46,471 nt of DNA, from IMG/VR virus record IMGVR_UViG_3300026522_000008; one strand, written 5' to 3'. Of this stretch, positions 1 through 46,471 are shown piece by piece. The position numbers and the translations under genes are program-made. Each line of letters starts with the position of its first letter. Position 1 is the stretch's first letter. Below the pieces are notes generated by a model. That model made no database searches. It saw only the letters and a program-made list of their open reading frames with translations, and was not told the DNA's origin. The stretch comes from a virus.

Positions 1-127
1 TAGGAGAATTCGTCTCCGTCATCTTCGTAGTTGGTGTGGAATTCATGGATGGCATCCATAACTCTTCCGAGTGCTGTCAGGTAGTCTTTGTAAATTCCGC
101 AGCAGAAGATTCCATCGCCCTGGTCAT
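1..127. repeat. Terminal direct repeat copy 1 (circular-assembly overlap)
   Basis: Bases 1-127 are identical to 46345-46471 by direct reading. An ORF reads in frame through the join. Confidence 0.95.
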
Positions 128-2210: not shown

Positions 2211-2294
2211 CGCTGCCTTTATTTCTAAAGGGCTTCCACCTGTATGCATCTTCTATTTTAACGCGGAATGCCCTTTTTTACAAGGAGGGTATTT

Positions 2295-3869
2295 ATGCGC
2301 TTTTTTTGTTATGGCAGGAAATCTGTTTATTCCGATCACTCGGATTCTGTCGATAATCAGGAGGGAATGTGCCGGGATTATGTTTCCTCCCGCTTTCCTG
2401 GTGAGGTCGACTCTTTTATCTGCTTCCAGGACGAGGATTTCTCTGGCGCGAACACGGACCGTCCGGGCCTTAAAGAAATGATGCGGCGGGTTCGGGCGCG
2501 GGAGTGCGACGCCCTGGTTGTCTACCAGCTGGATCGGCTTTCTCGGAACGTCCGGGATTTTTCCAATCTGTACGCGGAGCTTGATTCGCTCTCGGTGAAA
2601 TTTATCTCATTGAAGGAAAACATCGACACCGCCACCCCGATCGGACGCGCGATGATGTACGTGACCGTGATTTTTGCTCAGATGGAGCGGGAGACGACGG
2701 CGGTTCGGGTCCTGGATAATATGCGCGGCCTGTCTAAAAAAGGATACTGGACCGGCGGGAATCCTCCAACCGGGTACGTCCGCCAGCGCGTCGTGGAAGA
2801 CGGGCGGAAGCACGTGATCATCGTTCCGGATCCGGACGGCGTCGCCTATGTCCGGAAGGTCTTCTCCGATTTCTTGTCGATGAACTGCTCCCTCCAGCAC
2901 ATGGAGACCGCTTATCGTGATGCCGGCGTTCGCACGATCACCGGGAAGTTCTTCTCGTCGACACAGCTTTATAAAATCCTCACGATGCCTTTTTGTGTCG
3001 AAGCGACGCCGGAGGTCTATGATTTTTATGCCGCGAAAGGCTGCCAGATGGATCCTGGCTCCCCGCGCTCTGCGTGGGACGGTTCCGTCGGTGTCATGAT
3101 CTACGGCCGGTCGACCGAACGGAACAAAAAGCACGAGCTCCAGCCTCCGTCAGAATGGATCGTCTCTCTCGGGCGGCAGGAGCCATTTATTCCAGCCTCG
3201 GAATGGCTGGAGGTTCAGTCTCGGTTTACCCATAATAAGTGCATCAAAGACTCGCGCTGGCCGGTTCCTCTTCTGAAGGGCGTGCTCCGCTGCGGGAAAT
3301 GCGGAACGCTCATGCAGGTCGCCAGGAAGGCCCGGGTTGATGGCTCCTGCAGTTCGTGGTATTACTGCCGGAAGCGGATGAGGGAGGGCGCGGATGTCTG
3401 TGACATGCGGCACATCAAATGCGAGATCCTGGACGACCGGGTTCTGGAGGTTTTCCGCGGCATCGCTGCGGATCCGGATCTGATTCAGAAATACGTTGAA
3501 AGATCCGAGCCTGCTGCCGGGCCGGATCTTGCTGCCATCAACCAGAAGATCGCGGCGCAGGAGCGGAAAATTGAAAAGCTCGCAGCCTCCCTCGCTCTGG
3601 CGGACGGATCCTCTGCGGCTCGGTACATCATCTCCGAGATGGAATCCCTGGACGCTGGTCTTTCCTCCCTTCGCCAGGAAGCCACGGCTGCCGAGGCTGC
3701 GGTCCGTGAAAAACGCGCGGCGGCTGCCTCCGCAAAGGAAAAAGCCGAAGAAATCCGGAGGCTTATTTCCGGTCTGGATGGTTTTACTCCCAAGGAGCGG
3801 AACGAGATCGTCCGCTCCGTCGTGAAATCCTGCGCCTGGGACGGGGAGACGCTTTTTCTTTCGCTCTAA
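2295..3869 (+). CDS. Large serine recombinase (phage integrase), 524 aa
   Basis: ATG at 2295 after AAGGAGGG. The N-terminal resolvase domain reads YGRKSVYSD...VVYQLDRLSRN...ENIDTATPIGRAMM. It is followed by a recombinase domain, a Cys-rich zinc ribbon (CGKCGTLM...YYC) and an Ala-rich coiled coil. Confidence 0.92.
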   Translation: MRFFCYGRKSVYSDHSDSVDNQEGMCRDYVSSRFPGEVDSFICFQDEDFSGANTDRPGLKEMMRRVRARECDALVVYQLDRLSRNVRDFSNLYAELDSLSVKFISLKENIDTATPIGRAMMYVTVIFAQMERETTAVRVLDNMRGLSKKGYWTGGNPPTGYVRQRVVEDGRKHVIIVPDPDGVAYVRKVFSDFLSMNCSLQHMETAYRDAGVRTITGKFFSSTQLYKILTMPFCVEATPEVYDFYAAKGCQMDPGSPRSAWDGSVGVMIYGRSTERNKKHELQPPSEWIVSLGRQEPFIPASEWLEVQSRFTHNKCIKDSRWPVPLLKGVLRCGKCGTLMQVARKARVDGSCSSWYYCRKRMREGADVCDMRHIKCEILDDRVLEVFRGIAADPDLIQKYVERSEPAAGPDLAAINQKIAAQERKIEKLAASLALADGSSAARYIISEMESLDAGLSSLRQEATAAEAAVREKRAAAASAKEKAEEIRRLISGLDGFTPKERNEIVRSVVKSCAWDGETLFLSL

Positions 3870-4883: not shown

Positions 4884-5188
4884 AAACAAAAACTGAAATG
4901 CTAAAATTCGACCACGATCTCCTGGAAGCAAAAATAAAGGCTGCAGGTGAGACGCACGCCTCGCTCGCGCGGTATCTCGGAATGTCAAAGACGAATATGT
5001 CCGCGATCTGGGCTGACCGGACGGGCTGGCAAATGAAACACGTCGCTCCGCTCGCAGCCTTCCTGAAGCTCTCGGCAGAGGATGTGTGGAATATTTTTTT
5101 TATCCAAGACTTCGCGTTCTGGAGCTCCGTTCAGTTCTCTCCGGCGGACCAGAAAGAAAAACAAAAAAAGAGGGCCCTGGAGGATTGA
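4880..5188 (+). CDS. Small HTH-like protein (102 aa)
   Basis: ATG at 4880 in ATGA overlap with the previous stop. THASLARYLGMSKTNMSAIW looks like a helix-turn-helix. Confidence 0.65.
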   Translation: MKTKTEMLKFDHDLLEAKIKAAGETHASLARYLGMSKTNMSAIWADRTGWQMKHVAPLAAFLKLSAEDVWNIFFIQDFAFWSSVQFSPADQKEKQKKRALED

Positions 5189-5241: not shown

Positions 5242-6759
5242 TGCCTTGTGGCCGTAGCGGGTGTCGAGGCTGATCCATCCGGCCCCGGATTTCAGTTTAC
5301 CCCAGCCGCCGGACTGCTCCGTGATGGTGAATGTTCCCCTCCCGGTGTATTTTCCGGTCAGAGCTCCGCCGGGCGCCTTCCGAATCCGGAGATCGGGGAC
5401 GGTCACGGTCCACTTGAATTCTCCGGACGGCTTTGCCGCTGCCGCGGTTCCTCCGTTGACCTTGTGTCCGTATTCCGTCGAGAGGTTGATCCATCCGGCT
5501 CCGCTCTTAAGCCTTCCCCAGTTTCCGCTCTGCTGGACGATCGTGAAGGTTCCTTTTCCGGTCTGTCCCACGATGCCATAGTTTGTTCCGGGGCCTTTTC
5601 TGATATTTAGGTCAGAAATGGTCACCTGCCACTGAAAGTTCGCGGCGGTTCCGGCCGCTGCGCTTGCGCCGTTCCCGGTCGTGGCTGCAGTCATGGTCCC
5701 GCCGCTGCCGAGGCGCTTTTTAAACGCAAACCACGCGGATTCGTCTCCGCTGTCTGCGTTCCATCCTCTGATTCCAGGACAGGGCTTTCCGTTGACATCG
5801 TAGTGGCGGATTACTCTGTCTGCCGGGATTCCGTATTTCTGCATCAGGTACTTCGCCAGGGCGACCGCGTTGTTTACGGCTGCGTTGGTGAAGTAAAAAT
5901 TGCCATCGTTCGGGCTGGTAACTCTTCCGGTTCGGTTTGTGCTGCAGATCTCGATGGAGATGCAGTTCTTGTTGTTTGCGACTCCGTAAAGTCTGCCGCC
6001 TTTGTTGTTGTACTTTCCTCCGCCGACAGCCCAGCATGCGTGGGTCTTCGGGTCTGGGTTGTACTGGACCATTTCCGAATCATCGACGATGAAGTCCGCG
6101 GTTCCGCCTGCCTTCGGGTTTGCGAACCAGGAAGCGGTGTTTCTCGCGGATCCGGGCTTGCTGGTTACTCCGGCGGTGTAATGAATCACGAGGTACTTGA
6201 TTTCTCTCGCTCCGACGTACATTCCATGCGTTCCGGTTTTCATAATGATGTTCATGGCTTTTTCTCCTTCTTTGTCGTATTCCGTCAGGTTCCACTTCTC
6301 GATCACGGCGAGCAGGTTCTGGACGTAGGTCGGGCTCGTTGCGTAGCCTCCGGCCTTGATAATTTTCACGGCTCGCTCCGGGTTCTTTTCTCCAGCGAGA
6401 CCTGCATATCTCAGGCCGGTTCCTTTTTTCGCTCCGGTCAGGTAGTCCGAGTGGTCCTTGATGCTCTCCGCATCGGTCCTATATTTACGAAAAGCGGCCG
6501 ATATCGTAATGTATCGACCGTTTTCCCATTCCTTCGTATTCTTCGTGTAGGTGTCTCCGGTCCAGGAGGATTCCCAGTTGTTTCCGGAAAGGTTCGCCTT
6601 CATTCCGAATAAATTATGAGCGTTTTTCGCAAGCTCCGAGCTTCCGTATCCGGATTCCAGGATTGCCTGCGCCGCCGTGATCGAGGCAAGCACTCCGCTC
6701 CGTTTCATGTCTTCCCTTGCGAGCGGTCCGATATACTCCACGAATTGCTTTTCTGTCAA
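5239..6759 (-). CDS. Bifunctional endolysin: glucosaminidase + N-acetylmuramoyl-L-alanine amidase + 2 SH3 wall-binding repeats
   Basis: ITAAQAILESGYGSSELAKNAHNLFGMKA is the glucosaminidase signature. IKYLVIHYTAG...ISIEICS is Amidase_2-like. Two about 60-aa repeats (W.VT..DL.IRK.PG...G.FTI..QSG.WG.LKSGAGWI.L) follow. The start is probably TTG at 6759, 9 nt after AAGGAG. Confidence 0.9.
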   Translation of the reverse strand: MTEKQFVEYIGPLAREDMKRSGVLASITAAQAILESGYGSSELAKNAHNLFGMKANLSGNNWESSWTGDTYTKNTKEWENGRYITISAAFRKYRTDAESIKDHSDYLTGAKKGTGLRYAGLAGEKNPERAVKIIKAGGYATSPTYVQNLLAVIEKWNLTEYDKEGEKAMNIIMKTGTHGMYVGAREIKYLVIHYTAGVTSKPGSARNTASWFANPKAGGTADFIVDDSEMVQYNPDPKTHACWAVGGGKYNNKGGRLYGVANNKNCISIEICSTNRTGRVTSPNDGNFYFTNAAVNNAVALAKYLMQKYGIPADRVIRHYDVNGKPCPGIRGWNADSGDESAWFAFKKRLGSGGTMTAATTGNGASAAAGTAANFQWQVTISDLNIRKGPGTNYGIVGQTGKGTFTIVQQSGNWGRLKSGAGWINLSTEYGHKVNGGTAAAAKPSGEFKWTVTVPDLRIRKAPGGALTGKYTGRGTFTITEQSGGWGKLKSGAGWISLDTRYGHKA

Positions 6760-7603: not shown

Positions 7604-7752
7604 TGGGCTATCCTCTTTTCTACTTCTTCTAGCTTCTTTTCCTCTTCCTCGATGTCTGTGTACTGACGCAAGATCGCGATCAGCCTGCAAACCTGAGAGT
7701 GCAGGGTTGTGATGATCTCCGCCTGTTCCAGACAGAGGCTCTCATAAATCAT
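7600..7752 (-). CDS. Small 50-aa protein translationally coupled to the DGR RT
   Basis: ATG at 7752 in ATGA overlap with the RT stop (7749-7751). Sequence MIYESLCLEQAEIITTLHSQVCRLIAILRQYTDIEEEEKKLEEVEKRIAQ. Confidence 0.6.
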   Translation of the reverse strand: MIYESLCLEQAEIITTLHSQVCRLIAILRQYTDIEEEEKKLEEVEKRIAQ

Positions 7753-8852
7753 GCTGCTTCTCCTTCCTTTGGCTGCCTGGTCAGGACGAATCCTCCGAGG
7801 ACTTTGTCTCTCAAAGCGTCGCAGTCGCAATCCTCCAGGATCGCCTTGTAGCACATGTAAACCTCGCGGGCCTCTGAAATCGTGACGTCTCCGTTCCGGT
7901 AGTCGCTCTCGATCTTTACGAGGTACCGCTTCATGTGCTTCGCGCTGCTCTTTCGGATCGTCGTGTATCCAGGCCAGATCCTGTACCCGATGAACTCGAT
8001 TCCTTGCGAAACCGGACGGATGCAGGTCTTTTGGTTTAGATCAAGGTGCAGGTTCCCCTTCAGGAACGCGCGGATGCTTTCCTCCCATTCGTGCAGCTCT
8101 GCCTTGCTTTCAGAAAACGCCAGGCCGTCATCCATGTATCGGATGAATATCCGGATCCGGAGCTTCCTCTTGCAGAACTGATCGAGTTCGTTGAGGTAAA
8201 AATTCGCGAAGATCTGGCTCATCAGGTTCCCGATCGGCATCCCTACGTCGTAGAGCCGCTCCTCCATCGGGACCTCTCCGGGTTCTTTCCCTGGCGGAAG
8301 TCCGAAAGGCGTATGCTCGCAGTGAATGATGCCCGCCATCAGGTCGCAGAGCCTTGCGTCGCTGATTCTCTTCCTGAGAAGCGATTCCAGGATGTCGTGG
8401 TCGACGCGGTAAAAATATTTACTGATATCGAATTTCAGGTAGTAGAGTTTCTGGTTCTTTTGCTCTGCTCCGTCCAGCCAGTATCGGACGCGCTTCACAG
8501 CTTTTTGCGCTCCGCGCCCCGGGATGCATCCGTAGGTGTCGTCGATGTATCCCTGAACCAGCAGCGGGTGGATTTTTTGATAAATGCACCACTGAACGAT
8601 CCGGTGTTTGAAGGCGATCGACATGATCATCCTCTTCTTCGGCTCCCGAATGTAGAAGATGTGGTATTGGTCAACCGTGTACCTGCCGGAGTAGATTTCT
8701 TCCTGCAGCTCCTTCAGCTTCCGGTACGCGTCCAGGTTCCATCGCAGGACTTCCGGGTCGTAGCGTCTCCCTTTGCTCGCGTTCTTCAATGCTTCGAGCA
8801 TCGACTCCATCGAGAAGACCTCGTCAAAGGTCACCTTGATCTTGTTGCTCAT
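7749..8852 (-). CDS. DGR reverse transcriptase (367 aa from ATG 8852)
   Basis: PIGNLMSQ matches the DGR-clade (I/L)GxxxSQ motif. A YMDD catalytic box and FDISKYF (motif A-like) are also present. It lies downstream of TR. A TTG at 8942 would add 30 aa but lacks a correctly placed SD. Confidence 0.92.
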   Translation of the reverse strand: MSNKIKVTFDEVFSMESMLEALKNASKGRRYDPEVLRWNLDAYRKLKELQEEIYSGRYTVDQYHIFYIREPKKRMIMSIAFKHRIVQWCIYQKIHPLLVQGYIDDTYGCIPGRGAQKAVKRVRYWLDGAEQKNQKLYYLKFDISKYFYRVDHDILESLLRKRISDARLCDLMAGIIHCEHTPFGLPPGKEPGEVPMEERLYDVGMPIGNLMSQIFANFYLNELDQFCKRKLRIRIFIRYMDDGLAFSESKAELHEWEESIRAFLKGNLHLDLNQKTCIRPVSQGIEFIGYRIWPGYTTIRKSSAKHMKRYLVKIESDYRNGDVTISEAREVYMCYKAILEDCDCDALRDKVLGGFVLTRQPKEGEAA

Positions 8853-9111
8853 AAAAAAATAAAAAACACCGTGCGTCGCGGCTTTGTGCTCCTTCTCCCG
8901 GAGCGTACTCGCAGCTTCTTTTCCGCGGTTCACCTCCTTCAAAAATTCACGGCTGCCTCTGGTTTTGTTTGTCTCCGCCAGCGCGGCCTGCGGTACTATC
9001 GCCGCAGGTCTTTGTTTTTCGGCTTCGGTGCTTGACCGAGCCGTGGGAGCAGACTCCTTTATTCCCTATGCCGCGCGTCGTCCATGGACTTTCGCCTTCT
9101 GAATGGGAGTG
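8853..9111 (-). ncRNA. DGR spacer region between TR and RT (expected part of the DGR template/priming RNA)
   Basis: 259 nt with no credible ORF. It is GC-rich with hairpins, for example CCTGCGG-cgatagta-CCGCAGG on the minus strand (plus 8976-8997). The role is inferred by analogy with the BPP-1 Sp region. Confidence 0.5.
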
Positions 9112-9229
9112 AAGCGGAACGGAAGCCGAGGTTGTCGTTCGAGTTCGACCGCGGGTTGTTCAAGTTGACGTTGAAGACGCCCGCATTGCCGCCATTGTTC
9201 CAATTGCCACCGCAGTTCGCCACGCGCTT
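9112..9229 (-). repeat. DGR template repeat (TR)
   Basis: A 118-bp gap-free match to 9774-9891 at offset 662. It contains 27 coding-strand adenines, mostly in AAC codons (for example AAC GAC AAC). Confidence 0.93.
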
Positions 9230-9251
9230 CCCTACAGCCTGTTCCCGGTGT

Positions 9252-9695
9252 TTATTTCCTTTTCTTTAGATTTTTGTTTGCTTGTTGCTTCGGGTCTTCC
9301 GCCAGTTCCGGATAGACGTACTTGTAATAGCCGCCGATCAGCTTTCCAATCTCTTCGGATTGCCGGCTCCATTCTGCGAAATTCGAAGGCCCGCGCAGGC
9401 AGCCTGCGGTGAATGCCACCTGAATCAAATCGTGCATCGTGTGGTTTCTCATGTCGAGGTTCTTGAGCGCGCTCTTCTTTTGCCAGGAATACTGCAGCTC
9501 GTTCGCGTCGGCTACCATTTGGTGCATCAAGTTGGCCATAAAATCTCCGAGGAGTTTCTGATTTTTCACGCTCCAGCCACCTATCAGACCGAGGCCGTAA
9601 ACTTCCATATCCACGATTCTTTGTCGGATTGTGAAGTTTTGGTCTTCTTCCTCTTTTGATTCTATCGTCGGGTTCTTTTCTTCCGTCATGTACAT
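9252..9695 (-). CDS. avd: Accessory variability determinant (Avd-like four-helix-bundle protein)
   Basis: It sits between the target gene and TR. A helical protein of about 145 aa with a basic tail, ending EEIGKLIGGYYKY like the IGKMLGGWIK-type Avd motif. The start is ATG 9695 or, with better SD spacing, 9689. Confidence 0.75.
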   Translation of the reverse strand: MYMTEEKNPTIESKEEEDQNFTIRQRIVDMEVYGLGLIGGWSVKNQKLLGDFMANLMHQMVADANELQYSWQKKSALKNLDMRNHTMHDLIQVAFTAGCLRGPSNFAEWSRQSEEIGKLIGGYYKYVYPELAEDPKQQANKNLKKRK

Positions 9696-9714
9696 CTATC
9701 CTTCTCTGTCGGAT

Positions 9715-9739
9715 TGCGGCCGTGCTGCCGCAGGCCGCA
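9715..9739 (-). promoter_or_regulatory. GC-rich hairpin just 3-prime of VR (DGR target-recognition hairpin candidate)
   Basis: tgcggcc (9715-9721) and ggccgca (9733-9739) form a 7-bp stem with an 11-nt loop, about 20 nt past the target gene stop codon. Confidence 0.6.
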
Positions 9740-9759
9740 TCAGTTACTCAGTCGCCGGT

Positions 9760-10800
9760 TTACAGTTCGCAAAAAGCGGAACGGAAGCCGAGGGCGGCGC
9801 CCGAGTTCGACCGCGGGCCGCTCAAGCTGACGTTGAAGACGCCCGCACGGCCGCCATCGGACCAATTGCCACCGCAGTACGCCACGCGCTCGCCGCTCGT
9901 GTTCCAGCCGTGGTAATCGCCGCCATAATCGCCTCCGGCTTCTGCAGGGTAAAGGATCAGCTCTTTTGCGATCTCCGGTGCGGTCAGCCCGCTTGCGAGA
10001 GTCATTGCGCTGAAGCTCTCCCATCTTCCGGAATCGGTCGGGGTGACTGTCGTCGCCAGCTGGTTCGCGCTGTTCGAATACTTCAGGGTTCCGGAAGTTC
10101 CGGGCTCTACGAGGGAGCCATCTGAAGCGATAGCTTTCCAGCTTGTGCTCGCGGTTCCGAGGCTTGTTTCCTGCAGCATTGAATTGCAATAAGGGATAAT
10201 CTGGATTTCTCCGTCAACCAGACGGAGTCCTGCGTTCCACTCCCAGATGTTTCCATTCAAGTCTGCAATGCCGGCGCCGGTTCCATCATGGTTCCATGTC
10301 TCCGGTCCGGATCCGGTCGCGGTTCTTCTTTCCTTCTTTGCGGAGCTGTCGTAATAAGTGCCGACGCCATTTTCGAGCGGGTAGCTCGCGTCGGATCCGT
10401 AGTTGTTGTTGCCGTGCGGCATTGTTCCGTTTGCCCTGCAGAAAAGTGCAATTTCAGCCCAGAGGGCGAACGGGATAAGTCCCCAGCCTTTTCCTTTGGC
10501 TCTCGCGTACTGGACCGCCTGGTCGAAGTTTACGTATGTCGCCGGGTCTCTCATCGGCAGGGAGTAGCCTCTGCCTCCGTAGACGATGTCCTGGAACTTG
10601 TCGACGTACATCACGGATTTTTCAACTCCGTTTACGATGTGGCCGCTGTGGGTCTGGTCGCTTCCTCCGAAGAGTTCCTTATTGGTGTGCTTCGGAAATG
10701 CAACGACGACAGACGGGAGTCCTGCGTCATCAAGCAGGACGGTGTTCTTGCCTCCGGTCAAGGACTCGACCGCGAGCTTCATGTCATCAAAATTTGCCAT
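9760..10800 (-). CDS. DGR target: tail receptor-binding protein with C-terminal C-type-lectin/FGE-like variable domain (346 aa)
   Basis: AAAAGGAGG precedes ATG 10800. GIADLNGNIWEW and the C-terminal GGNWSDGGRAGVFNVSLSGPRSNSGAALGFRSAFCEL are typical of DGR variable proteins. VR occupies the last about 43 codons. Confidence 0.9.
   Translation of the reverse strand: MANFDDMKLAVESLTGGKNTVLLDDAGLPSVVVAFPKHTNKELFGGSDQTHSGHIVNGVEKSVMYVDKFQDIVYGGRGYSLPMRDPATYVNFDQAVQYARAKGKGWGLIPFALWAEIALFCRANGTMPHGNNNYGSDASYPLENGVGTYYDSSAKKERRTATGSGPETWNHDGTGAGIADLNGNIWEWNAGLRLVDGEIQIIPYCNSMLQETSLGTASTSWKAIASDGSLVEPGTSGTLKYSNSANQLATTVTPTDSGRWESFSAMTLASGLTAPEIAKELILYPAEAGGDYGGDYHGWNTSGERVAYCGGNWSDGGRAGVFNVSLSGPRSNSGAALGFRSAFCEL
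9774..9891 (-). repeat. DGR variable repeat (VR)
   Basis: It differs from TR at 16 positions, all TR adenines on the coding strand. The 3-prime 21 nt (9774-9794, CCTCGGCTTCCGTTCCGCTT-type GC-rich block) are identical to TR, giving an IMH-like end. Confidence 0.93.
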
Positions 10801-17334: not shown

Positions 17335-20300
17335 TTATGCGAATGCCCGACGGCCTTCCGTCCGCAGGTACTCGCGCATCATCTTCTTGAAGTCTTCCTG
17401 GCTCATCTTGTTCGCCTGGACCATGTCTTCCTTGGACGGGGCTCCGCCCTCGAAGCGATAGGTTGGACTGAATACAAAGGTTTCGCCTCCGGTCGACTGT
17501 TGTTTCTGGGTTCCGGCTCCGCCGCCAGCCATTCGGTTCACGGTGTCCGGGATAACGCTTGAGCTTGCGTTCTGATCGAACGTCGGGGTCTCAAGCACGG
17601 CGCTCTGCGATGCCTGCGCGGCTATCGGCTGAGCGAGGTATTTGCTTGCGCTGTTCTGAACCAGTCCGGTTTCGTTCTTCAAACCTTCCGCGAGGCCCAT
17701 GCCTGCGAACTGTCCGGATTGCATCAAAACCTTAGACGGCGAGTGAATTTTCAGCGCGGAGTTGACTGTCGATGCCACCTGGTTCGCGATGTTCCGGGCT
17801 TGCGCTATTGCGCTTGCTCCGGCGCTTGCGATTCCGGCTCTGAGTCCGTTCATCGCCTGAGAACCTGCCGAGAACATGGATCCGTAAAGTCCCGCGAATG
17901 CGGAGACCATTTGCGCCGCGGTGCTCCGGCATGCTGCCGTTGCCTGCGAGCCTCCGGATCTTATTGCTGCGACGAATGCGACCATAGCCGCCGTCACGGT
18001 TGCGTTCATCTGGGTCATTCCACTCTGAGTTGCCGTGTTCATCTGCGTCACGCCTTGCTGAGTTGCTGCCGTGCTCTGCGTCATGGCGTTCTGAATTGCA
18101 AGGACAAATTGCTGCATTGCCATCGCCGCGGCTGGTCCCATCTGGCCGAGCATTGCGACCGAAACAATCAACGATGCGGAAAGTGCCGCCATTCCGGCTG
18201 CCGCGGTGATCGTTGCTCCGGAGAATACCAGCATTGCCGTTGCCGCCATCGCAAGCGGAACTGCCGCCGCGGTCACATTTGCGGAGAACGGCAGGATTGC
18301 TGCCGCCAGCATGGTAAACGCTGCAGCCGCCGGTGTTGCTACTGCCGGCAGCCCTGTCAGTGCCATTTTCAGAAGTGCGATGCTTCCGCTTGTTAGAGTC
18401 AGGGCTCCGGAAAAAAGAGCGACCGCTGCCGCCAGCGCGGTGAATGCCGCCGCGCCTCCGAGAGTTGCAGCTGCAAGTGCCGCCATTCCGGCTGCCGTTG
18501 CTACGGCTACTGCCGCGAGCGGTGTTAAGGCCGCCGCAAGCGGTACGGCTCCGGCTGCGATGACAGCCATCTTTGCCGCGGTTCCTGCTGCTCCCGATGC
18601 GAGGGATTTCAGAGCCGATCCGGCCGCCTTGGCGCTTCCTTCAATCGTTACGACTGAGGCTGCGACAATTGCCGCTGCCGCTGCGAGCGGAACCATTCCG
18701 GCTGCCGCCGCTACGGTTCCGGCTGCGAGGACGACCATTGCTGCTCCAAGTGCGAGTGTTGGCGCTGCCGCTGCGAGGGAAGCTGCCGCGAACGGGATAA
18801 ATGCCGCGGTCAACATTGTCATCGGCGCTGCCGCTGTTATGGCTCCAGCTGAGAACATTCGGATTGCTGCGGAAAGCGCGAGAAGTGCCGCACTTCCTAC
18901 TGCCGCTCCGGCTGCGATCAGCGCCGTTGCCGCTGCGAGGATCGCTGCCGCCGCTCCGGCCGCTATGATTCCAGCCGCGGCTGCGAGTGCTCCGGCTGCG
19001 AGTGCAGCCATTGCCGCCGCTGCCGCGATAGCTCCTGCGCTTCCTACCGCTGCCATTGCTCCGAATGCGGTTATTGCCGCCCCGAGCGTCAAAAGCGCAG
19101 CCGCCGCGGAAGGTCCCGCGGAGCTGATCAGCGGAAGGCTTGACGCCATCAGGGTGATACCGGCACTTGCGAGCGCGACTCCAGCTCCGACCATTGTAAT
19201 CGCAGCTCCAAAGGCAAGCATCCCTGGCGTTGCCACCAGAAGTGCCGGTCCGAGCAGTGCAAAAACTCCGGCGAGTGCGGCGATGCCTACGGCCATTGCA
19301 GCCATGGCTACTTGCGCTCCGGTTCCGGCCTGTGAGAGCTGAATTGCCGAATTAGCAAGCAGGGCGAATCCTGCAGATGCCATCAGGATTGCAGCTCCGA
19401 ATGCGAGAAGCCCTGCAGCTCCAGCTGTGAGCGCCGGTCCCAATGCTCCGGCTACTGCAAGGAGTGCGATCATTCCGCCTTCCATTAATGCGAGCGCTGC
19501 AAATGCAGCAGGCCCAGCTGCCGCTACCTGTGTTGCCGCCATAGCCATGAGGCTCATGCCTCCAGCCGCCATCAATACGGCGCCTCCGAAGGCGAGAAGT
19601 CCTGTCGCTCCGGCTGTGAGTTGTGGTCCGAGCGCTCCGGCGATTGCCATAAGCGCTGCGATTCCTCCGGTCATCAACGCAAGCGAACCGACCGCGAGTG
19701 GTCCGGCATTTGCTAACTGAATAGCCGCGAGGGTCATTAATGCCATGCCTCCGGCCGCCATCAGGATTGCTCCGCCCAATGCCAGGAGTCCGGTTGCGGA
19801 TCCTTGGACTGTCGGGGCGAGTTGTGCGATGACCGCCATGAATGCCGCGAGCCCGATTCCGAGTCCGACCAGCGCGATTTGTGCCTGCGGTCCCGCCTTG
19901 GCGATATCCTTTGCCGCCTGGACGAGGATCCATGCTCCAGCTGCAGCCAGTGCAAGTCCTCCACCGAATCCGAGCGCGTTCTTTGCTGCCGCACTCATCG
20001 CTGTAGATGCCTGGGATGTCGGTGCGGCTACTCCTTTTGCCTTGCTGACAAGATTTCCGATAGCTCCGCCGACTTTTCCGAACACTCCGACGATGCTTCC
20101 GGCAATTTTGAAAAGTCGCCCGACGATTAAGAGAACCGGTCCGGCTGCCGCGGCCATCATCACCCATTTGACGATGTTTTTCTGCATCGCCGGGTCGAGG
20201 CCGTTGAATTTATCAATGAGCCCGGTGATCTTGTCTACGAAAGGCTGTAAAACTTCGCCCACAATTCCGCCGACGTTGTATTTCAAAACGTCGAAGGAAG

Positions 20301-21354
20301 AGCTTAATTTTTCAAGCGATCCACCCATTCCGGACATGAGGGCGTCCGCCATGCTCTGCGAAGCTCCAGCTGCGTCGTTCAGCGACGCACTGTACTTTTG
20401 TACTTGCTCCGGGCTCGCATTGATCAGTGCCATCCACTTTTCCATCTGGTTTTTTCCGAAGATTGCGGATGCTGCCTGCAGCTGTTCTTCCTGCGTCAAA
20501 CCTGCGAATGCATTGTGCAGCTGTTCCTGGACGTTGACCATGCTCTTCATGGTTCCGTCCGCGTTGAAAATGTTCAGCCCGAGCTTTTTCATCCACACGG
20601 CTCCGTCTTTTGCCGGGGACGCCAGTCTTGCGAGTCCGGTCTTCAGGGCTGTAGCTCCTTCGGATCCGCTGATTCCCGCGTCGCCCAGAACATCGGTAAT
20701 CGTTGCGAGGTCTTGCATGTTCCATCCGACCTTTGCGACGATTGGTCCCGCGGTTGCCATTGCTTCGAACAAGTCCGATGTGGTCGTGTTCGCCTGAGCC
20801 TGCGCCTTTGCCAGAATGTCTGCAGCTGTCGTTGCATAGTCAGAATTCTTACCGAACATTTTCAGCGCGTTTCCGAGTCCACTGGTTACTTCCGACAGGT
20901 CTGTTTCGGTTCCGGCTGCAAGGTTTAAGGCTGGAGTGATCATGTTTCCTGCTTCGGCCGCGGTGAAACCTTGGCGGGCGAAGTTCAGGGTGGCGTCAGC
21001 TGCGTCCTGCATTCCGAATACGGAATTGGCAGCGGCTGTCTTGAGCGATGCGGCCAGCTTTGCCGCTTCTTCGTCCGTGGATCCCATTGTTGCCTGAACG
21101 AGTCGCAGGGTTTTGTCCACGTCTCCGAATTCCTTCACGCTGGTTCCGGCGAGGCCGACGATCGGCATCGTGACTCCGGCCGTGAGGCTGGTTCCTACTG
21201 TCGTGAGGGTATTTCCGATGGTGGTTAATCCCTGCGAGATCGACTGGCTTTTGCTTAATCCCTGTAGCTGCTTCTGCGCTCCGGAAATGGCGGAAGAGAG
21301 GGATTTATCAAGTTGTCCGGCGATCTTTATCGCGATTTCATATTCACTTGCCAT
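17335..21354 (-). CDS. Tail tape measure protein (1339 aa) with long uncharged Ala/Gly/Leu/Met repeat core
   Basis: It is the largest gene and lies after the chaperone pair. The N-terminal TP901-type TMP domain reads NFARQGFTAAEAGNMITPALNLAAGT. The central part holds at least 4 tandem units of about 63 aa. Confidence 0.92.
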   Translation of the reverse strand: MASEYEIAIKIAGQLDKSLSSAISGAQKQLQGLSKSQSISQGLTTIGNTLTTVGTSLTAGVTMPIVGLAGTSVKEFGDVDKTLRLVQATMGSTDEEAAKLAASLKTAAANSVFGMQDAADATLNFARQGFTAAEAGNMITPALNLAAGTETDLSEVTSGLGNALKMFGKNSDYATTAADILAKAQAQANTTTSDLFEAMATAGPIVAKVGWNMQDLATITDVLGDAGISGSEGATALKTGLARLASPAKDGAVWMKKLGLNIFNADGTMKSMVNVQEQLHNAFAGLTQEEQLQAASAIFGKNQMEKWMALINASPEQVQKYSASLNDAAGASQSMADALMSGMGGSLEKLSSSFDVLKYNVGGIVGEVLQPFVDKITGLIDKFNGLDPAMQKNIVKWVMMAAAAGPVLLIVGRLFKIAGSIVGVFGKVGGAIGNLVSKAKGVAAPTSQASTAMSAAAKNALGFGGGLALAAAGAWILVQAAKDIAKAGPQAQIALVGLGIGLAAFMAVIAQLAPTVQGSATGLLALGGAILMAAGGMALMTLAAIQLANAGPLAVGSLALMTGGIAALMAIAGALGPQLTAGATGLLAFGGAVLMAAGGMSLMAMAATQVAAAGPAAFAALALMEGGMIALLAVAGALGPALTAGAAGLLAFGAAILMASAGFALLANSAIQLSQAGTGAQVAMAAMAVGIAALAGVFALLGPALLVATPGMLAFGAAITMVGAGVALASAGITLMASSLPLISSAGPSAAAALLTLGAAITAFGAMAAVGSAGAIAAAAAMAALAAGALAAAAGIIAAGAAAAILAAATALIAAGAAVGSAALLALSAAIRMFSAGAITAAAPMTMLTAAFIPFAAASLAAAAPTLALGAAMVVLAAGTVAAAAGMVPLAAAAAIVAASVVTIEGSAKAAGSALKSLASGAAGTAAKMAVIAAGAVPLAAALTPLAAVAVATAAGMAALAAATLGGAAAFTALAAAVALFSGALTLTSGSIALLKMALTGLPAVATPAAAAFTMLAAAILPFSANVTAAAVPLAMAATAMLVFSGATITAAAGMAALSASLIVSVAMLGQMGPAAAMAMQQFVLAIQNAMTQSTAATQQGVTQMNTATQSGMTQMNATVTAAMVAFVAAIRSGGSQATAACRSTAAQMVSAFAGLYGSMFSAGSQAMNGLRAGIASAGASAIAQARNIANQVASTVNSALKIHSPSKVLMQSGQFAGMGLAEGLKNETGLVQNSASKYLAQPIAAQASQSAVLETPTFDQNASSSVIPDTVNRMAGGGAGTQKQQSTGGETFVFSPTYRFEGGAPSKEDMVQANKMSQEDFKKMMREYLRTEGRRAFA

Positions 21355-37003: not shown

Positions 37004-37316
37004 GTCCCCACTTTGTCCCCATTTTTAGTGGGTACACTTTTTTCCTCAGAAAAGGCTTATTTCCGGGCTTTTTCGGAGGTGTCCCCACTGTCCCCACTTT
37101 TTTTGGAATATACACTCACTTTTTTTAAGATTTTTTCCTTCGAGTGTTCCAGAGAAGGAAAAAAATTAAAAAACAGTTTAGCAATAATATTTAGTGGGTA
37201 CAGTGGGTACAAGTGGGTACAGATGTCTGAAAGCCTTGATTTTGCGGCATTTTCGCGTCCCCACTTTTGTCCCCACTTTTGTCCCCACTTTTCTCTGAAA
37301 CGTTAAAAGTGGGTAC
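37004..37316. repeat. Origin-of-replication iterons: GTCCCCAC(TTTT) and its near-complement AGTGGGTAC
   Basis: gtccccac occurs at 37004, 37081 and 37090, with gtccccat at 37015. The triple tandem gtccccactttt lies at 37257-37292. agtgggtac occurs at 37027, 37193, 37202, 37212 and 37308. The surrounding spacers are AT-rich. Confidence 0.8.
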
Positions 37317-37324
37317 AGATTCTT

Positions 37325-37368
37325 TGTGGAAATGTGGATAACTCGTCAAAAATTGTGGATAACTCGTC
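37325..37368. promoter_or_regulatory. Two perfect DnaA boxes (TGTGGATAA) within a duplicated 15-mer, plus one degenerate box
   Basis: tgtggataactcgtc occurs at 37333-37347 and 37354-37368, and tgtggaaa at 37325-37332. TGTGGATAA is the reverse complement of the TTATCCACA consensus. Confidence 0.75.
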
Positions 37369-37403
37369 GGGAAATTGTTCAAGTTTTTTATTACCTCATT
37401 TTT

Positions 37404-40070
37404 TCAAAACGGAAGTGCTTCTTCAACTTCTTTTGAAATTGGTTCGAAGTCATCCGCAGCGCTTTCGACGTCGTCTTCATTGTCGCCTTCCATGTGGATT
37501 TCGATCATCCTGGTCTTGGCTCCGTTAAATCGGCGCTGCACGCTCATGTGCTTTCCGTCTTTGTCCATCTTTAGAATTCCCCTGTCGGCCATGTATTTCA
37601 GAGTTTTCCTCGGACTGAATCCGGCTTTTTTCAGAGCTTCGGTCAGCAAAGAAGGGTAAATCCAGGCAATGCTCGCACTCTCATTGATATCTCCGAGGCA
37701 GGTTCCGATGGCTTTTTCCCCGAAGTATCCCTTGTTCGAGAGTACCCAGTCTGTTATAAACTGGACGGCGTTTTCATTTACGTCGGCTGCTTCTGAGTCG
37801 ATCTGCGCTTTCAGAATGGATTCCGCCATGCGCTTTGCTCGCTCCCAGCTCTCAGGCTTGATTTCCAGACTCTTCTCCTGACCTTCCGGCTCATCTTCCG
37901 CTGCCGGTGCGTCTTCCGAGAAGATCCAGGTGTCGATCATGGCATCAGCCAGAGCGACCGCGGAGATCCCTGCGATGTGTGATCCGCTTTTTCCTTTGGC
38001 TATTCCGTTCACGTATTTGAGCATATCGCTGTATTTTTCCTGAATGCTGGATTCCGTGACCTGGAAAAGCCGCCGGACGAATTCTGGACCAGCGTATCCG
38101 AAGTTCTCCATACATTGCTGGTGCATCAGCCCCGCCTGCTGCTCGCTGTCGAATGGGCCGCCGTAAATCTCAAGAACTCGGGAGCTGACACCGGTCTGCG
38201 TTGTTTCGGTTGAGAGCGGTTCCTCTCCGGTCGCCAGGGCCGCGGTCCTCCATTGGCTTGTGGTTTGGAGACCTCCGCCCTTCGCTCCCCTGATCTTCCC
38301 GGTTCCGGATGAGATCATGTAGACGATCTTCTCCAGTGAGTCCTGATTCTTTCCGGCGAGCTGCCGTTCGTCGATGCCGAGTGGCAGATCGCAGTAAAAT
38401 GCGGCGATCCGTTCCAGCCCGACCTGCGTCGCGTTAAAATTTACCATCAGTCGTTCCGGATCTCCCCAGGCGGAGAGCGCTGCTTTAAGGCCAGCCGTCT
38501 TTCCTCCTTTACTGGATCCCCAGTTATAAACGAAGAATATTCTTTGTTTTATGATCCGCAGGAGAGGCGCCGCAAAGCTCGCAGCCATAATAAACCGGAA
38601 GGTGTCGCGCTCTCTGTGCGGTCTCATGGTTTCGACCCACCCTTCGAGCGTTCCGGTTTGGCAGTAAGCTGCGGCCATTCCTCTCTGCGATGGGTCTATG
38701 TCCAGAACAATTCCTTTGTCGTGTCCTGGGATGAACCTTTTTCCCGGCTGCCATCCGAATGTGGACGTGGCGTCGGATTTCTGTATAATATCTATGTTCT
38801 CTGCTTCGAGTGCGGAAAGAAAGCGCACCAGCATCTTCGCGTTTTCGGACGTTACCGTGCACCCAAGGTCCGCGAGGACCGTGATTGAGCGCGCCGTGAA
38901 AATGGTCGAACGCTGGAAGATCGCGGTTTTCCATTCTCCGTCGCGCTTGAATGCAATTTCAATTTTTTCTTCTCCGGTCTCCAGGCTTTTCAGTCTCTGC
39001 GTTAAAATGATCGGGGTCCGGCAGACCAGCACGGGCCCGTAGGTTTTCTCATCGATGTGACTGATTCCCTGGTCTGAGTAGATCCATCCTTCCGGCTGTC
39101 TGAGATTCACCGGTGCTCCGCTGATTGCTTCGGGGACAGCTGTTTCCGGTTTACTCAGGTCGATTTCCTTTGCTCCTTCGAGGAGCTTTAGAATTTTCTG
39201 CCCGGCCTTCTCTGCTCCGAGTTCCATGTATAATTCGCTCGGGTCCTTGTGTCCGCCGATCGCGCTGCACTGGAATTTGTAAACCTTACCAATGAATCCG
39301 CCCTTGATCAGTCCTTCGGTCACCTTTTGCAGGAATGTCTGACCGCCCTGGTCCGGTTCCTGATGAATGTATACCTTCAGGTCTTGGAGCTTGTCCGCCA
39401 TGTTCGGCTTGAACATGGACGCTCCGGGAATTCCGAGGCAGCTGATTCCCATCTGCCACATGCTTTGGCTGTCGGACTCTCCCTCGACCAGGCACACGTA
39501 GCCTGCCTTCCGGATCTTCTCGAGCTGCCACTCGCCGTACATGATGATCTTTCCGCTGGATCCGTAACGCCATCTGAATTCCTTATTTGCGTAGCGCTTC
39601 CGGTACGTTGCCAGCGTTCCGTCTTCCTTCAGGTACGGTATTTTCATCCATGTGGTTCCGTCTTTGTCTTTTTCGTCAGAAATGTGGCAGGAATTGCGGA
39701 GCCAGTCTTCCGGAAGGTGTTTCTGGAAGGCGTACTGCTTAACCGAAAAGCTCCGCTGACTTACGCGCCTTTTTTCCTTGTCTTCGGGCGTCGGCATTAA
39801 AATGTTGTACTTTTCGCATATCTGCTTGTAGGCTTCCTTTGTATCCGTGTTGTAAACTTTAGCCCAGAAGTCTATAAAATTGCCGCCGATGTCCTCTGCG
39901 AAGCAGTGCCATTTTCCTGTCTTCAGGTCGACTGAGAAGGAGGCGTTCCTATCGTCGTGGAATGGGCAGATTCCGGTCATGTTGTCTCCGGAAACCTTCG
40001 CCTTCTTCACGTACGGCTCGTATTCCATTCTGTAGTCGACAATGCTGTCGAGGTCTACTGCTTCAACCAT
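37404..40070 (-). CDS. Bifunctional DNA primase-helicase (CHC2 zinc finger + TOPRIM + DUF927-type P-loop helicase, 888 aa)
   Basis: CPFHDDRNASFSVDLKTGKWHCF is the CHC2 zinc finger. LVEGESDSQSMWQMG is the TOPRIM motif. NWGSSKGGKTAGL is the Walker A motif. Confidence 0.92.
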   Translation of the reverse strand: MVEAVDLDSIVDYRMEYEPYVKKAKVSGDNMTGICPFHDDRNASFSVDLKTGKWHCFAEDIGGNFIDFWAKVYNTDTKEAYKQICEKYNILMPTPEDKEKRRVSQRSFSVKQYAFQKHLPEDWLRNSCHISDEKDKDGTTWMKIPYLKEDGTLATYRKRYANKEFRWRYGSSGKIIMYGEWQLEKIRKAGYVCLVEGESDSQSMWQMGISCLGIPGASMFKPNMADKLQDLKVYIHQEPDQGGQTFLQKVTEGLIKGGFIGKVYKFQCSAIGGHKDPSELYMELGAEKAGQKILKLLEGAKEIDLSKPETAVPEAISGAPVNLRQPEGWIYSDQGISHIDEKTYGPVLVCRTPIILTQRLKSLETGEEKIEIAFKRDGEWKTAIFQRSTIFTARSITVLADLGCTVTSENAKMLVRFLSALEAENIDIIQKSDATSTFGWQPGKRFIPGHDKGIVLDIDPSQRGMAAAYCQTGTLEGWVETMRPHRERDTFRFIMAASFAAPLLRIIKQRIFFVYNWGSSKGGKTAGLKAALSAWGDPERLMVNFNATQVGLERIAAFYCDLPLGIDERQLAGKNQDSLEKIVYMISSGTGKIRGAKGGGLQTTSQWRTAALATGEEPLSTETTQTGVSSRVLEIYGGPFDSEQQAGLMHQQCMENFGYAGPEFVRRLFQVTESSIQEKYSDMLKYVNGIAKGKSGSHIAGISAVALADAMIDTWIFSEDAPAAEDEPEGQEKSLEIKPESWERAKRMAESILKAQIDSEAADVNENAVQFITDWVLSNKGYFGEKAIGTCLGDINESASIAWIYPSLLTEALKKAGFSPRKTLKYMADRGILKMDKDGKHMSVQRRFNGAKTRMIEIHMEGDNEDDVESAADDFEPISKEVEEALPF

Positions 40071-46206: not shown

Positions 46207-46471
46207 TACCAGAATCCTCCTTCCTTGTGTTCACGGGCTTCGAGGATGTAGTAGTTCTCGGTTCGTGCCTTTTCCCAGCTTTTTGCTTTGAATGTAACTG
46301 TGATTCCGTATCCGCCATCGCCTCCGGTTTCCCATGGATCCGTGTAGGAGAATTCGTCTCCGTCATCTTCGTAGTTGGTGTGGAATTCATGGATGGCATC
46401 CATAACTCTTCCGAGTGCTGTCAGGTAGTCTTTGTAAATTCCGCAGCAGAAGATTCCATCGCCCTGGTCAT
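46206..46471 (-). CDS. C-terminal part of the junction-spanning hypothetical gene (same gene as 1..365)
   Basis: It stops at 46206 (TAATG overlap with the exonuclease start). The reading frame stays open to the window end and continues at base 365 via the repeat. Confidence 0.8.
   Translation of the reverse strand, partial: DQGDGIFCCGIYKDYLTALGRVMDAIHEFHTNYEDDGDEFSYTDPWETGGDGGYGITVTFKAKSWEKARTENYYILEAREHKEGGFW
46345..46471. repeat. Terminal direct repeat copy 2
   Basis: Identical to bases 1-127. Confidence 0.95.

Follow-up and report, generated by a model that had tools for sequence, protein, structure and literature searches.

Does a stretch of DNA from an uncultured virus encode a complete apparatus for the targeted diversification of one of its own proteins, and is this apparatus still at work? 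The question is raised by a locus in the IMG/VR virus record IMGVR_UViG_3300026522_000008, 46,471 nt long, which in its whole length is referred to as the window. On its minus strand, a gene for a 346-aa protein is followed by a small gene, a copy of the 3' end of the first gene, a non-coding spacer and a gene for a reverse transcriptase (RT), an arrangement that points to a diversity-generating retroelement (DGR) with its template repeat (TR) and variable repeat (VR). The DGR of Bordetella phage BPP-1, with the order mtd-avd-TR-brt, is the prototype of these elements. On the evidence set out below, the cassette of the window is very probably a complete DGR with the gene order of BPP-1 in a temperate phage with a contractile tail, and it is real and probably working.

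Adenine-restricted divergence between two repeats

The pattern of differences between the two repeats is evidence for a DGR. The TR (9112..9229, minus strand) and the VR (9774..9891, minus strand), which covers in frame codons 304-342 of the 346-codon open reading frame (ORF) 9760-10800, align over 118 nt without gaps at an offset of 662 and show 16 mismatches in the computed comparison. All of these (16/16) are located at a plus-strand T of the TR, equivalent to an A on the coding minus strand, of which the TR possesses 27, and the number of non-adenine mismatches in the window is zero. By the hypergeometric distribution, a set of 16 mismatches would be confined to 27 out of 118 positions with a probability of 5.6e-13, and an independent repeat search recovered the same pair (9112-9228 and 9774-9890, 87% identity). 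An earlier note on this DNA had arrived at the gapless offset of 662, the 16 mismatches, the 27 adenines and the lack of non-adenine mismatches by manual alignment, and the computed alignment reproduces each of these figures; its codon example, AAC GAC AAC in the TR against GCC GCC GGC in the VR, is right in plus-strand order, while in coding order the VR reads GGC GCC GCC.

The template adenines occupy codon positions 1 and 2 of nine AAC, three AAT, one GAC and one AAG codon. The AAG codon gives rise to the first mismatch, at 9229, where the VR has GAG (K/E304). At this site, an A is present in the TR and a G in the VR of every relative examined, and a difference fixed in all relatives is probably situated outside the homed segment. 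Its exclusion leaves, as effective figures, 15 changed positions among 25 adenines; the codons concerned are 12 of the type AAY and one GAC, from which approximately 5e14 proteins are possible, a stop codon being impossible.

The earlier note had called for a search for additional TR-like copies. Both strands of the whole window were scanned for further or remote VRs by matching the non-adenine positions of the TR with any base allowed at its adenines, over the full length and in 40-nt sub-windows; TR and VR were the only copies recovered. A scan of IMG/VR with the TR/VR pattern, with N at the adenines, gave 0 matches, the pattern being too strict over 114 nt.

Reverse transcriptase and accessory protein

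The RT gene (7749..8852, minus strand) encodes 367 aa from the ATG at 8852, and its product matches RVT_1 with E 7.6e-19. The closest solved structure is chain A of 8UB7 (E 6.5e-39), with RTs of the group II intron and retron types at 1e-14 or weaker; as chain B of the same entry is named Avd, we infer that 8UB7 belongs to the bRT-Avd-RNA complexes of bioRxiv 10.1101/2023.10.23.563531. From the ATG at 8852, residue 8 onward of the window RT aligns with residue 8 of bRT. A DGR-type RT is recognised by a motif 4 of the form [I/L/V]GxxxSQ, and not the QGxxxSP of group II introns, together with a catalytic YxDD. The window RT carries IGNLMSQ (equivalent to I181-G182...S186-Q187 of bRT), YMDD and the catalytic Asp of LKFD, and residues F66, R74, I76, I181, G182 and Q187, which contact the template and the incoming nucleotide in bRT (bioRxiv 10.1101/2023.10.23.563531), are conserved in the alignment. 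By its motifs and its best structural match, the enzyme belongs to the DGR clade, as had been proposed from IGNLMSQ and YMDD. Approximately 80 nt upstream of the ATG an AAGGAGG is found, at which some gene callers begin the RT (393-394 aa).

Next to the TR, a divergent homologue of Avd with 147 aa is encoded (9252..9695, minus strand). Its affiliation was assessed with a family set of 32 members, that is the window protein and the syntenic protein of 31 relatives. PF22296 is matched by 32/32 of these syntenic proteins (best 8.5e-37), and the top two PDB matches of the family profile are 4DWL, which is Bbp7, the Avd of BPP-1 (9.7e-4), and chain B of 8UB7 (6.8e-3). The window protein is therefore a divergent but genuine member, so that the proposal of an Avd-like protein holds at the level of the family. 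A scan of JGI metagenome contigs based on Avd yielded no confirmed relative.

Sequence elements at the target site

The 3' 20 nt of the VR (9774-9793, CCTCGGCTTCCGTTCCGCTT) are free of adenine and identical to the TR and, in this, resemble the GC-rich part of the sequence at which mutagenic homing is initiated (IMH). Mismatches of the IMH/IMH* kind within the repeat are absent from the window, and in sister lineages it is just the last position that differs.

Behind the VR, a putative target-recognition hairpin or cruciform (9715..9739, minus strand) is predicted from the fold of the DNA and from its equivalents in relatives. Its GC-rich stem of 10 bp contains a single bulged C and carries the 4-nt loop GGCA (9726-9729); the hairpin begins 34 nt past the end of the TR/VR homology and 20 nt past the stop codon. 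Since the folding energy of the single sequence is unremarkable (z = -1.5 for the hairpin window, not significant alone), it is conservation that argues for the hairpin: an equivalent is found in 45/45 distinct relatives with stems that differ in sequence and with the 4-nt loops GGUA, GAUA, GGCA, GAAA or GGAA. In BPP-1 and other phage DGRs, a GC stem of 7-10 bp with a 4-nt GRNA loop is located 4-34 bp from the VR, and experiments in BPP-1 have demonstrated that the stem counts by its structure and the loop by its sequence (PMC3240598). The hairpin of the window fits this consensus, and with the adenine-free 3' end of the VR the window possesses both cis elements of a DGR target site.

Architecture of the DGR RNA

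The spacer (Sp) RNA (8853..9111, minus strand) is non-coding and, as previously reported, spans 259 nt from the end of the TR to the RT ATG (8852). For the analysis of its structure, the DGR RNAs of 38 non-identical relatives were aligned over 40 nt upstream of the TR, the TR itself and 150 nt of spacer, and three helices, H1, H2 and H3, are supported by RNAalifold and by an explicit count of pairs. H1 is a long-range duplex of 12 bp between 9236..9247, located between the avd stop codon and the TR, and 9044-9055 in the spacer; its 12 pairs are 93.6% paired, with nine changed on both sides. H2 is a stem-loop with the tetraloop CAUG (9075-9095), and H3 (9040-9043 with 9020-9023) is a stem-loop directly after H1, followed by an A-rich run (9012-9019); all these elements are on the minus strand. 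Taken over the helices, 91.2% of the cells are paired versus 71.5% in shuffled alignments and 37-52% with the partners slid by 1-3 columns, double changes amount to 211 cells versus 68 expected, and compensatory changes are seen in 20/24 pairs. None of 500 shuffles attained the observed pairing values.

The Sp of BPP-1 comprises an Avd-binding stem-loop (Sp3-33), a primer strand (Sp47-56) that ends in A56, a Stop duplex of Sp59-70 with the 3' end of avd, a stem-loop (Sp71-78) and unpaired adenosines, and the same elements have been predicted in 207 other DGRs, including those of Bacillota (bioRxiv 10.1101/2023.10.23.563531). In the window, the order of tetraloop stem-loop, primer-side segment, duplex between upstream region and spacer, short stem-loop and adenosines is the same, and the elements of a DGR RNA are thus represented by three covarying helices. 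By this analogy, H2 would be the Avd-binding stem-loop and H1 the counterpart of the avd:Sp 'cPRT Stop' duplex of BPP-1, with binding of Avd and RT and priming as the presumable functions of these elements.

A fourth helix is a candidate for the primer helix. In it, CUCCC (9109-9105, minus strand), the first nucleotides after the TR and the putative template strand, pairs with AGGGA (9067-9063, minus strand) just before a near-invariant AAAGG (9056-9060, minus strand), of which AAGG is invariant. Many compensatory variants occur by lineage (for example CUCUC/GAGAG, CCCUA/UAGGG, GCCACA/UGUGGC and CCUCC/GGAGG), and the comparison of cognate with non-cognate duplex energies lends the helix modest support (permutation p = 0.009). 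An adenosine of AAAGG, situated 2-3 nt before the strand of the Stop duplex like A56 of BPP-1, is a candidate priming site.

The distal spacer, where the alignment is gappy, contains a further 7-bp hairpin, CCUGCGG...CCGCAGG (8983-9006, minus strand), and a conserved motif GGAGACA(A/C)ACAAA (columns ~318-375 of the alignment). Both recur in many relatives, with differing stem sequences, and may be the counterpart of the thumb-ring and bRT-binding elements of BPP-1. A run of T (8853-8868, minus strand) precedes the RT ATG. Pairing of the 3' end of the TR with the AAGGAGG region upstream of the RT had appeared in a single-sequence fold of TR and spacer (z = -1.2) and was discarded, as the mean z across 30 relatives was -0.5 (RNAduplex versus shuffles).

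The target protein

The target gene (9760..10800, minus strand; 346 aa) encodes a protein with a predicted C-type lectin (CLec) fold of the formylglycine-generating enzyme (FGE) type. In a phmmer search against all PDB chains, the protein matched 5VF4 (TaqVP) with E 2.9e-56 over residues 5-343, and the VR of the window is aligned on the VR segment of TaqVP (residues 341-374). TaqVP is the monomeric single-domain variable protein, of FGE-type CLec fold, of a Thermus aquaticus prophage DGR (PMC6328139). The Pfam family FGE-sulfatase is passed narrowly, with 24.2 bits versus a cut-off of 23.3. The VR is therewith located at the 3' end of an ORF with a C-type lectin fold. Entries of Mtd, on the other hand, were not returned by the same search at E up to 1. 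In members of the Mtd family, which resemble Mtd in sequence, the CLec domain is preceded by an N-terminal beta-prism and beta-sandwich trimerisation domains, and the target is not such a member. Judged by its sequence, it is of the TaqVP type and not of the Mtd type, although the FGE-type CLec superfold is common to both; of the likeness to Mtd/TvpA-type C-type lectins, for which a check had been proposed, the lectin fold has been found via 5VF4 and the likeness to Mtd has not.

Diversification in natural populations

Relatives of the cassette are numerous. Protein searches returned 2,981 homologues of the target, and among the 15 closest of these (90-96% identity) the differences are almost exclusively confined to the AAY codons of the TR. 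At the DNA level, eight close relatives have a nearly invariant TR and a VR that is different in each, with 12-21 mismatches per pair at adenines. Relatives are encoded on 254 IMG/VR contigs, and about 60 of the 80 contigs examined possess a TR/VR pair of approximately 116 nt in which nearly all mismatches are located at TR adenines. A nucleotide match to the 5-kb region was not found among 50,697 phage records.

Most informative are three contigs from three different samples (L013, L015 and L016), which are identical over 9,047 bp apart from 14-18 differences, all located in the VR at positions of TR adenines. As otherwise identical sister contigs differ exclusively at adenine-templated positions of the VR, this lineage, which shares 99.5% (Avd) and 98.3% (TR) identity with the window, is demonstrably active. 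The assertion of recent activity is backed by these sister contigs. The proposed test for adenine-restricted variation within a population has, by comparison of contigs, a positive outcome in the sister lineage, while the clone of the window displays the same VR in three datasets; its activity would follow from the intactness of the cassette, as read from its sequence. The window clone is present in SRR7971120, SRR7690870 and JGI 3300025804, and the sister lineage in SRR948136, SAMN02302790, SAMN02302788 and JGI 3300011977.

Several peculiarities have been observed among the relatives. Two TR alleles are in circulation, ...AAC CCG CGG TCG AAC... and ...AAC ACC CGC GGC AAC..., and in L004 a TR of the first allele is paired with a VR of the second (4985-4993 versus 5647-5655). 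The VR of L010 has two non-adenine differences from its TR, T>G and C>A, at positions 20 and 75. Both anomalies may stem from strain recombination, from chimeric assembly or from rare errors at bases other than adenine. In the close relative L011 (logan SRR22355981, 5097-5150), a deletion of approximately 1.7 kb has joined window position ~9672 to ~7985, so that ~8 codons from the start of avd run on into the final ~75 codons of the RT; TR and spacer are gone, and the target gene, the hairpin and a diversified VR with 15 adenine-site differences from the window TR are kept. This contig represents a natural 'frozen' variant without a DGR or else has been misassembled. Many contigs of this phage family, among them L002, L003, L004, L005, L012 and L014, end within or beside VR, avd or TR, which agrees with an interruption of the assembly by the repeat and by microdiversity of the VR. 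Three proteins 61% identical to the target (P0034, P0045 and P0076) represent 90%-identity clusters with 661, 7,557 and 2,996 distinct members, respectively. Clusters of this size are what a phage population of very high abundance with a hypervariable VR would give rise to, and the family is clearly widespread in public metagenomes.

Comparison with known systems

The cassette resembles that of BPP-1 in the order of target, avd, TR, spacer and RT on the minus strand, which confirms the layout previously assigned to it, in the AAY-rich TR, in a target of C-type lectin fold that bears the VR at its 3' end, in the presence of an Avd homologue, in an RT with IGxxxSQ and YMDD to which bRT is the closest structure, and in the GC-rich hairpin with GRNA loop after the VR. 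In contrast to BPP-1, the target lacks the beta-prism and beta-sandwich trimerisation domains and a sequence match to Mtd, the spacer comprises 259 nt compared to 140 nt, the Stop duplex has its 5' strand in the intergenic gap between avd and TR and not inside avd, and the candidate primer helix is situated just outside the TR/VR homology. A stretch of IMH* that differs from IMH inside the repeat is consequently not seen in the window. A further difference is the distance of 34 nt between hairpin and VR, and the host of the phage is probably a Gram-positive gut anaerobe. Of four of these details (type of target, spacer length, site of the Stop strand and site of the primer helix), none departs from the known mechanism.

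With the prophage DGR of Thermus aquaticus, the window shares homology over the full length of the target, a single-domain FGE-type CLec with N-terminal wrap, and the avd-TR layout (PMC6328139); phylum and environment are different, and the window protein is shorter (346 aa versus 385 aa of TaqVP). The closest cultured relative is Clostridium phage Saumur (ON453901) of Enterocloster clostridioformis, with 45.7% identity in the target and 45.5% in the RT, a 47 kb genome and the same local order from the baseplate genes to the endolysin, with some differing small ORFs; the TR/VR pair of Saumur is adenine-specific as well (14/14 mismatches). Faecalibacterium phage FP_Lagaffe follows with 43.0% (target) and 39.3% (RT) identity. 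Its DGR with an FGE-type target, Avd and elevated read variability in the VR has been published, as have DGRs in 10/18 Faecalibacterium phages (PMC5883640). The window differs from these two phages in a protein identity of only ~40-46% and in the lack of a cultured host. More distant in sequence are the myovirus-like DGR phages VHML and VP585 of Vibrio and BalMu-1 of Bacillus, with mostly proteobacterial hosts, the same gene order and 31-40% (target) and 36-41% (RT) identity; VHML is among the phage DGRs that bear the GRNA hairpin (PMC3240598). The DGR type of the window is thus common and has already been described in phages of gut Clostridia (PMC5883640).

Weighing alternative interpretations

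A number of observations do not favour a complete and functional DGR aimed at a tail protein. Taken alone, the window Avd stays below the cut-offs of Pfam bAvd PF22296 (E 2.2e-6, 28.6 bits versus 40) and of NCBIfam DivGenRetAVD (E 2.2e-7), and a direct sequence match in the PDB was not obtained for it. The RT ATG at 8852 is preceded by TTTTTTATTTTTTT and lacks a Shine-Dalgarno sequence. The AlphaFold2 model of the target, built from a 19-sequence alignment, is poor (mean predicted local distance difference test 48, predicted template modelling score 0.44) and unusable, so that the assignment of the fold rests on the sequence homology to 5VF4, and the target would be a single-domain protein. 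The exact VR of the window has been recovered unchanged from three datasets (L001-L003), and a few non-adenine differences between TR and VR occur in some relatives (L004 and L010).

With respect to the target, a role as the receptor-binding protein of the tail is plausible, as the gene comes last after the baseplate genes, as in Saumur; this synteny, a weak PHROG match to a tail protein and the annotations of homologues point in this direction. That a real DGR instead diversifies some other ligand binder, for instance a virion decoration protein or an adhesin directed at surfaces such as mucus, or else a protein that is not structural, is considered unlikely. Such a function would be compatible with the missing sequence match to Mtd and with the best PHROG of the target, phrog_2889 (E 2e-116), whose function is not annotated, and DGRs of other gut phages do target Hoc-like decoration proteins (PMC5883640). 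However, the target is the last gene of a co-oriented tail block that consists of baseplate J, P2 gpI, four small ORFs and the target itself, an order kept in Saumur and in all relatives; a second PHROG, phrog_5302, is a 'tail protein' (E 3.5e-12); and several phages possess homologues that bear the annotation antireceptor, virion structural protein or Mtd-like.

With respect to activity, the cassette could look intact and be silent or non-functional in the clone of the window, the VR being a frozen record of past homing. The recovery of this VR together with identical flanks in contigs of three datasets, an RT start without Shine-Dalgarno sequence after a T-run, and a window Avd that is the most divergent scorer against PF22296 would agree with silence. 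Furthermore, a diversified VR persists in L011 despite the loss of avd, TR and the greater part of the RT, which indicates that frozen VRs occur in the lineage. Against this stand the intactness of all ORFs with conserved catalytic and template-contact residues in the RT, the presence of every cis element (hairpin, RNA helices and adenine-free 3' homology) and a TR that shares 98-100% identity with the TR of sister genomes differing only at adenine-templated sites; besides, the three datasets may sample the consensus of one population. A silent cassette is therefore quite improbable.

With respect to the mechanism, cis-primed reverse transcription and homing can be envisaged in a variant form that works without IMH* in the TR and in which the additional spacer RNA has a further role, for example in the control of RT translation. 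The TR/VR homology ends where the primer helix begins (CUCCC, two nt past the TR), the spacer is nearly twice as long as that of BPP-1 and has extra conserved hairpins, and the RT ATG, which lacks a Shine-Dalgarno sequence and follows the T-run, suggests the idea of translational control. A low probability is assigned to this variant.

An ordinary duplication, followed by random mutation of the copies and without any part played by a retroelement, has nothing in its favour beyond the existence of the direct repeat. It is refuted by the computed alignment with its 16/16 mismatches at template adenines (p ~6e-13), by RT, Avd, hairpin and RNA elements placed exactly as a DGR requires and by sister genomes that differ only at adenine-templated positions, and its probability is practically nil.

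A proposed mechanism

For the DGR of the window, the following course of events is proposed. A transcript over the avd-TR junction, the TR and the spacer would fold into a ribonucleoprotein with the RT and an Avd pentamer; the helices are shown by covariation, and the binding of the proteins is suggested by the example of BPP-1. The 5' stem-loop of the spacer would bind Avd, and the helix after the TR and before AAAGG would position a spacer adenosine as a cis-primer, with synthesis starting at the 3' edge of the TR. As in BPP-1, the RT would copy the TR with misincorporation at adenines until the duplex of upstream region and spacer halts synthesis at the 5' edge. The cDNA would then replace the VR, with the adenine-free homology of the 3' 20 nt and the GRNA hairpin 34 nt downstream as guides, sequence elements that are present in the window and to which this function is ascribed. 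As an outcome, the 12 AAY codons and the GAC codon would be randomised on the ligand-binding face of the TaqVP-like lectin domain; the adenine-specific result of the process can be seen in the window genome and in the sole differences between otherwise identical sister genomes. Judged by synteny and by the Mtd of BPP-1, it is likely that the receptor or ligand specificity of the phage is varied in this way.

The carrier phage

An exact direct repeat of 127 bp is present at both ends of the window (1-127 and 46345-46471). A terminal overlap of this length (k = 127) is what a circular assembly leaves behind; the genome is therefore complete, in agreement with its earlier designation as a complete phage genome, and has a unique length of 46,344 bp. 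The carrier is best explained as a temperate phage with a contractile tail and a genome of ~46.3 kb, found in metagenomes of gut or rumen. The genome encodes a gpA-type terminase, a lambda-type portal, a capsid protein, a 1,339-aa tape measure protein, a P2-type baseplate with homologues of gpJ and gpI, a DUF927 primase, an SNF2 helicase, a DNA methylase and an endolysin of glucosaminidase-amidase-SH3 composition. Downstream of the target, avd, TR, spacer and RT are followed by the lysis genes. A large serine recombinase (2268-3869, plus strand; Resolvase, Recombinase and Zn_ribbon_recom) is encoded on the strand opposite to the structural genes, which makes a temperate life style probable. 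In a contig scan of genome collections for prophage copies, only distant ones with 31-34% identity were found among the matches listed. Rfam at gathering thresholds and ARAGORN gave no match over the whole window, and a scan for promoters and terminators around the cassette was not informatively above the shuffled expectation.

Two regions outside the cassette have been noticed in addition. An intergenic low-GC cluster of tandem repeats (37193-37378), composed of three copies of AGTGGGTAC, three exact copies of GTCCCCACTTTT and 2.4 copies of a 21-mer, adjoins the DUF927/CHC2 primase gene (37404-40070); the units AGTGGGTAC and GTCCCCACTTTT are near reverse complements of each other, and by its sequence the cluster is a candidate replication origin with iterons. 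The region 18000-20000 is GC-rich (0.63 versus ~0.53 elsewhere) with an AT skew near zero; it is located within the gene for the 1,339-aa tape measure protein (17335-21354) and contains two short imperfect tandem repeats.

Significance

The cassette adds no new principle to the biology of DGRs. If the variant of priming and spacer function considered above were true, deletions such as that in L011 would provide a ready test of the cost of freezing the receptor-binding tip. The locus is useful as a reference for benchmarking DGR finders, for explaining assembly breaks at VR and TR in this phage family, for comparative studies of DGR RNA architecture in Gram-positive phages and for the choice of samples in which DGR activity is to be followed by read mapping. 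Its value lies in being an unusually clean and fully annotated DGR in a complete genome of an uncultured gut or rumen phage, in which every known cis and trans element has been placed to the base and of which natural populations show adenine-restricted variation.

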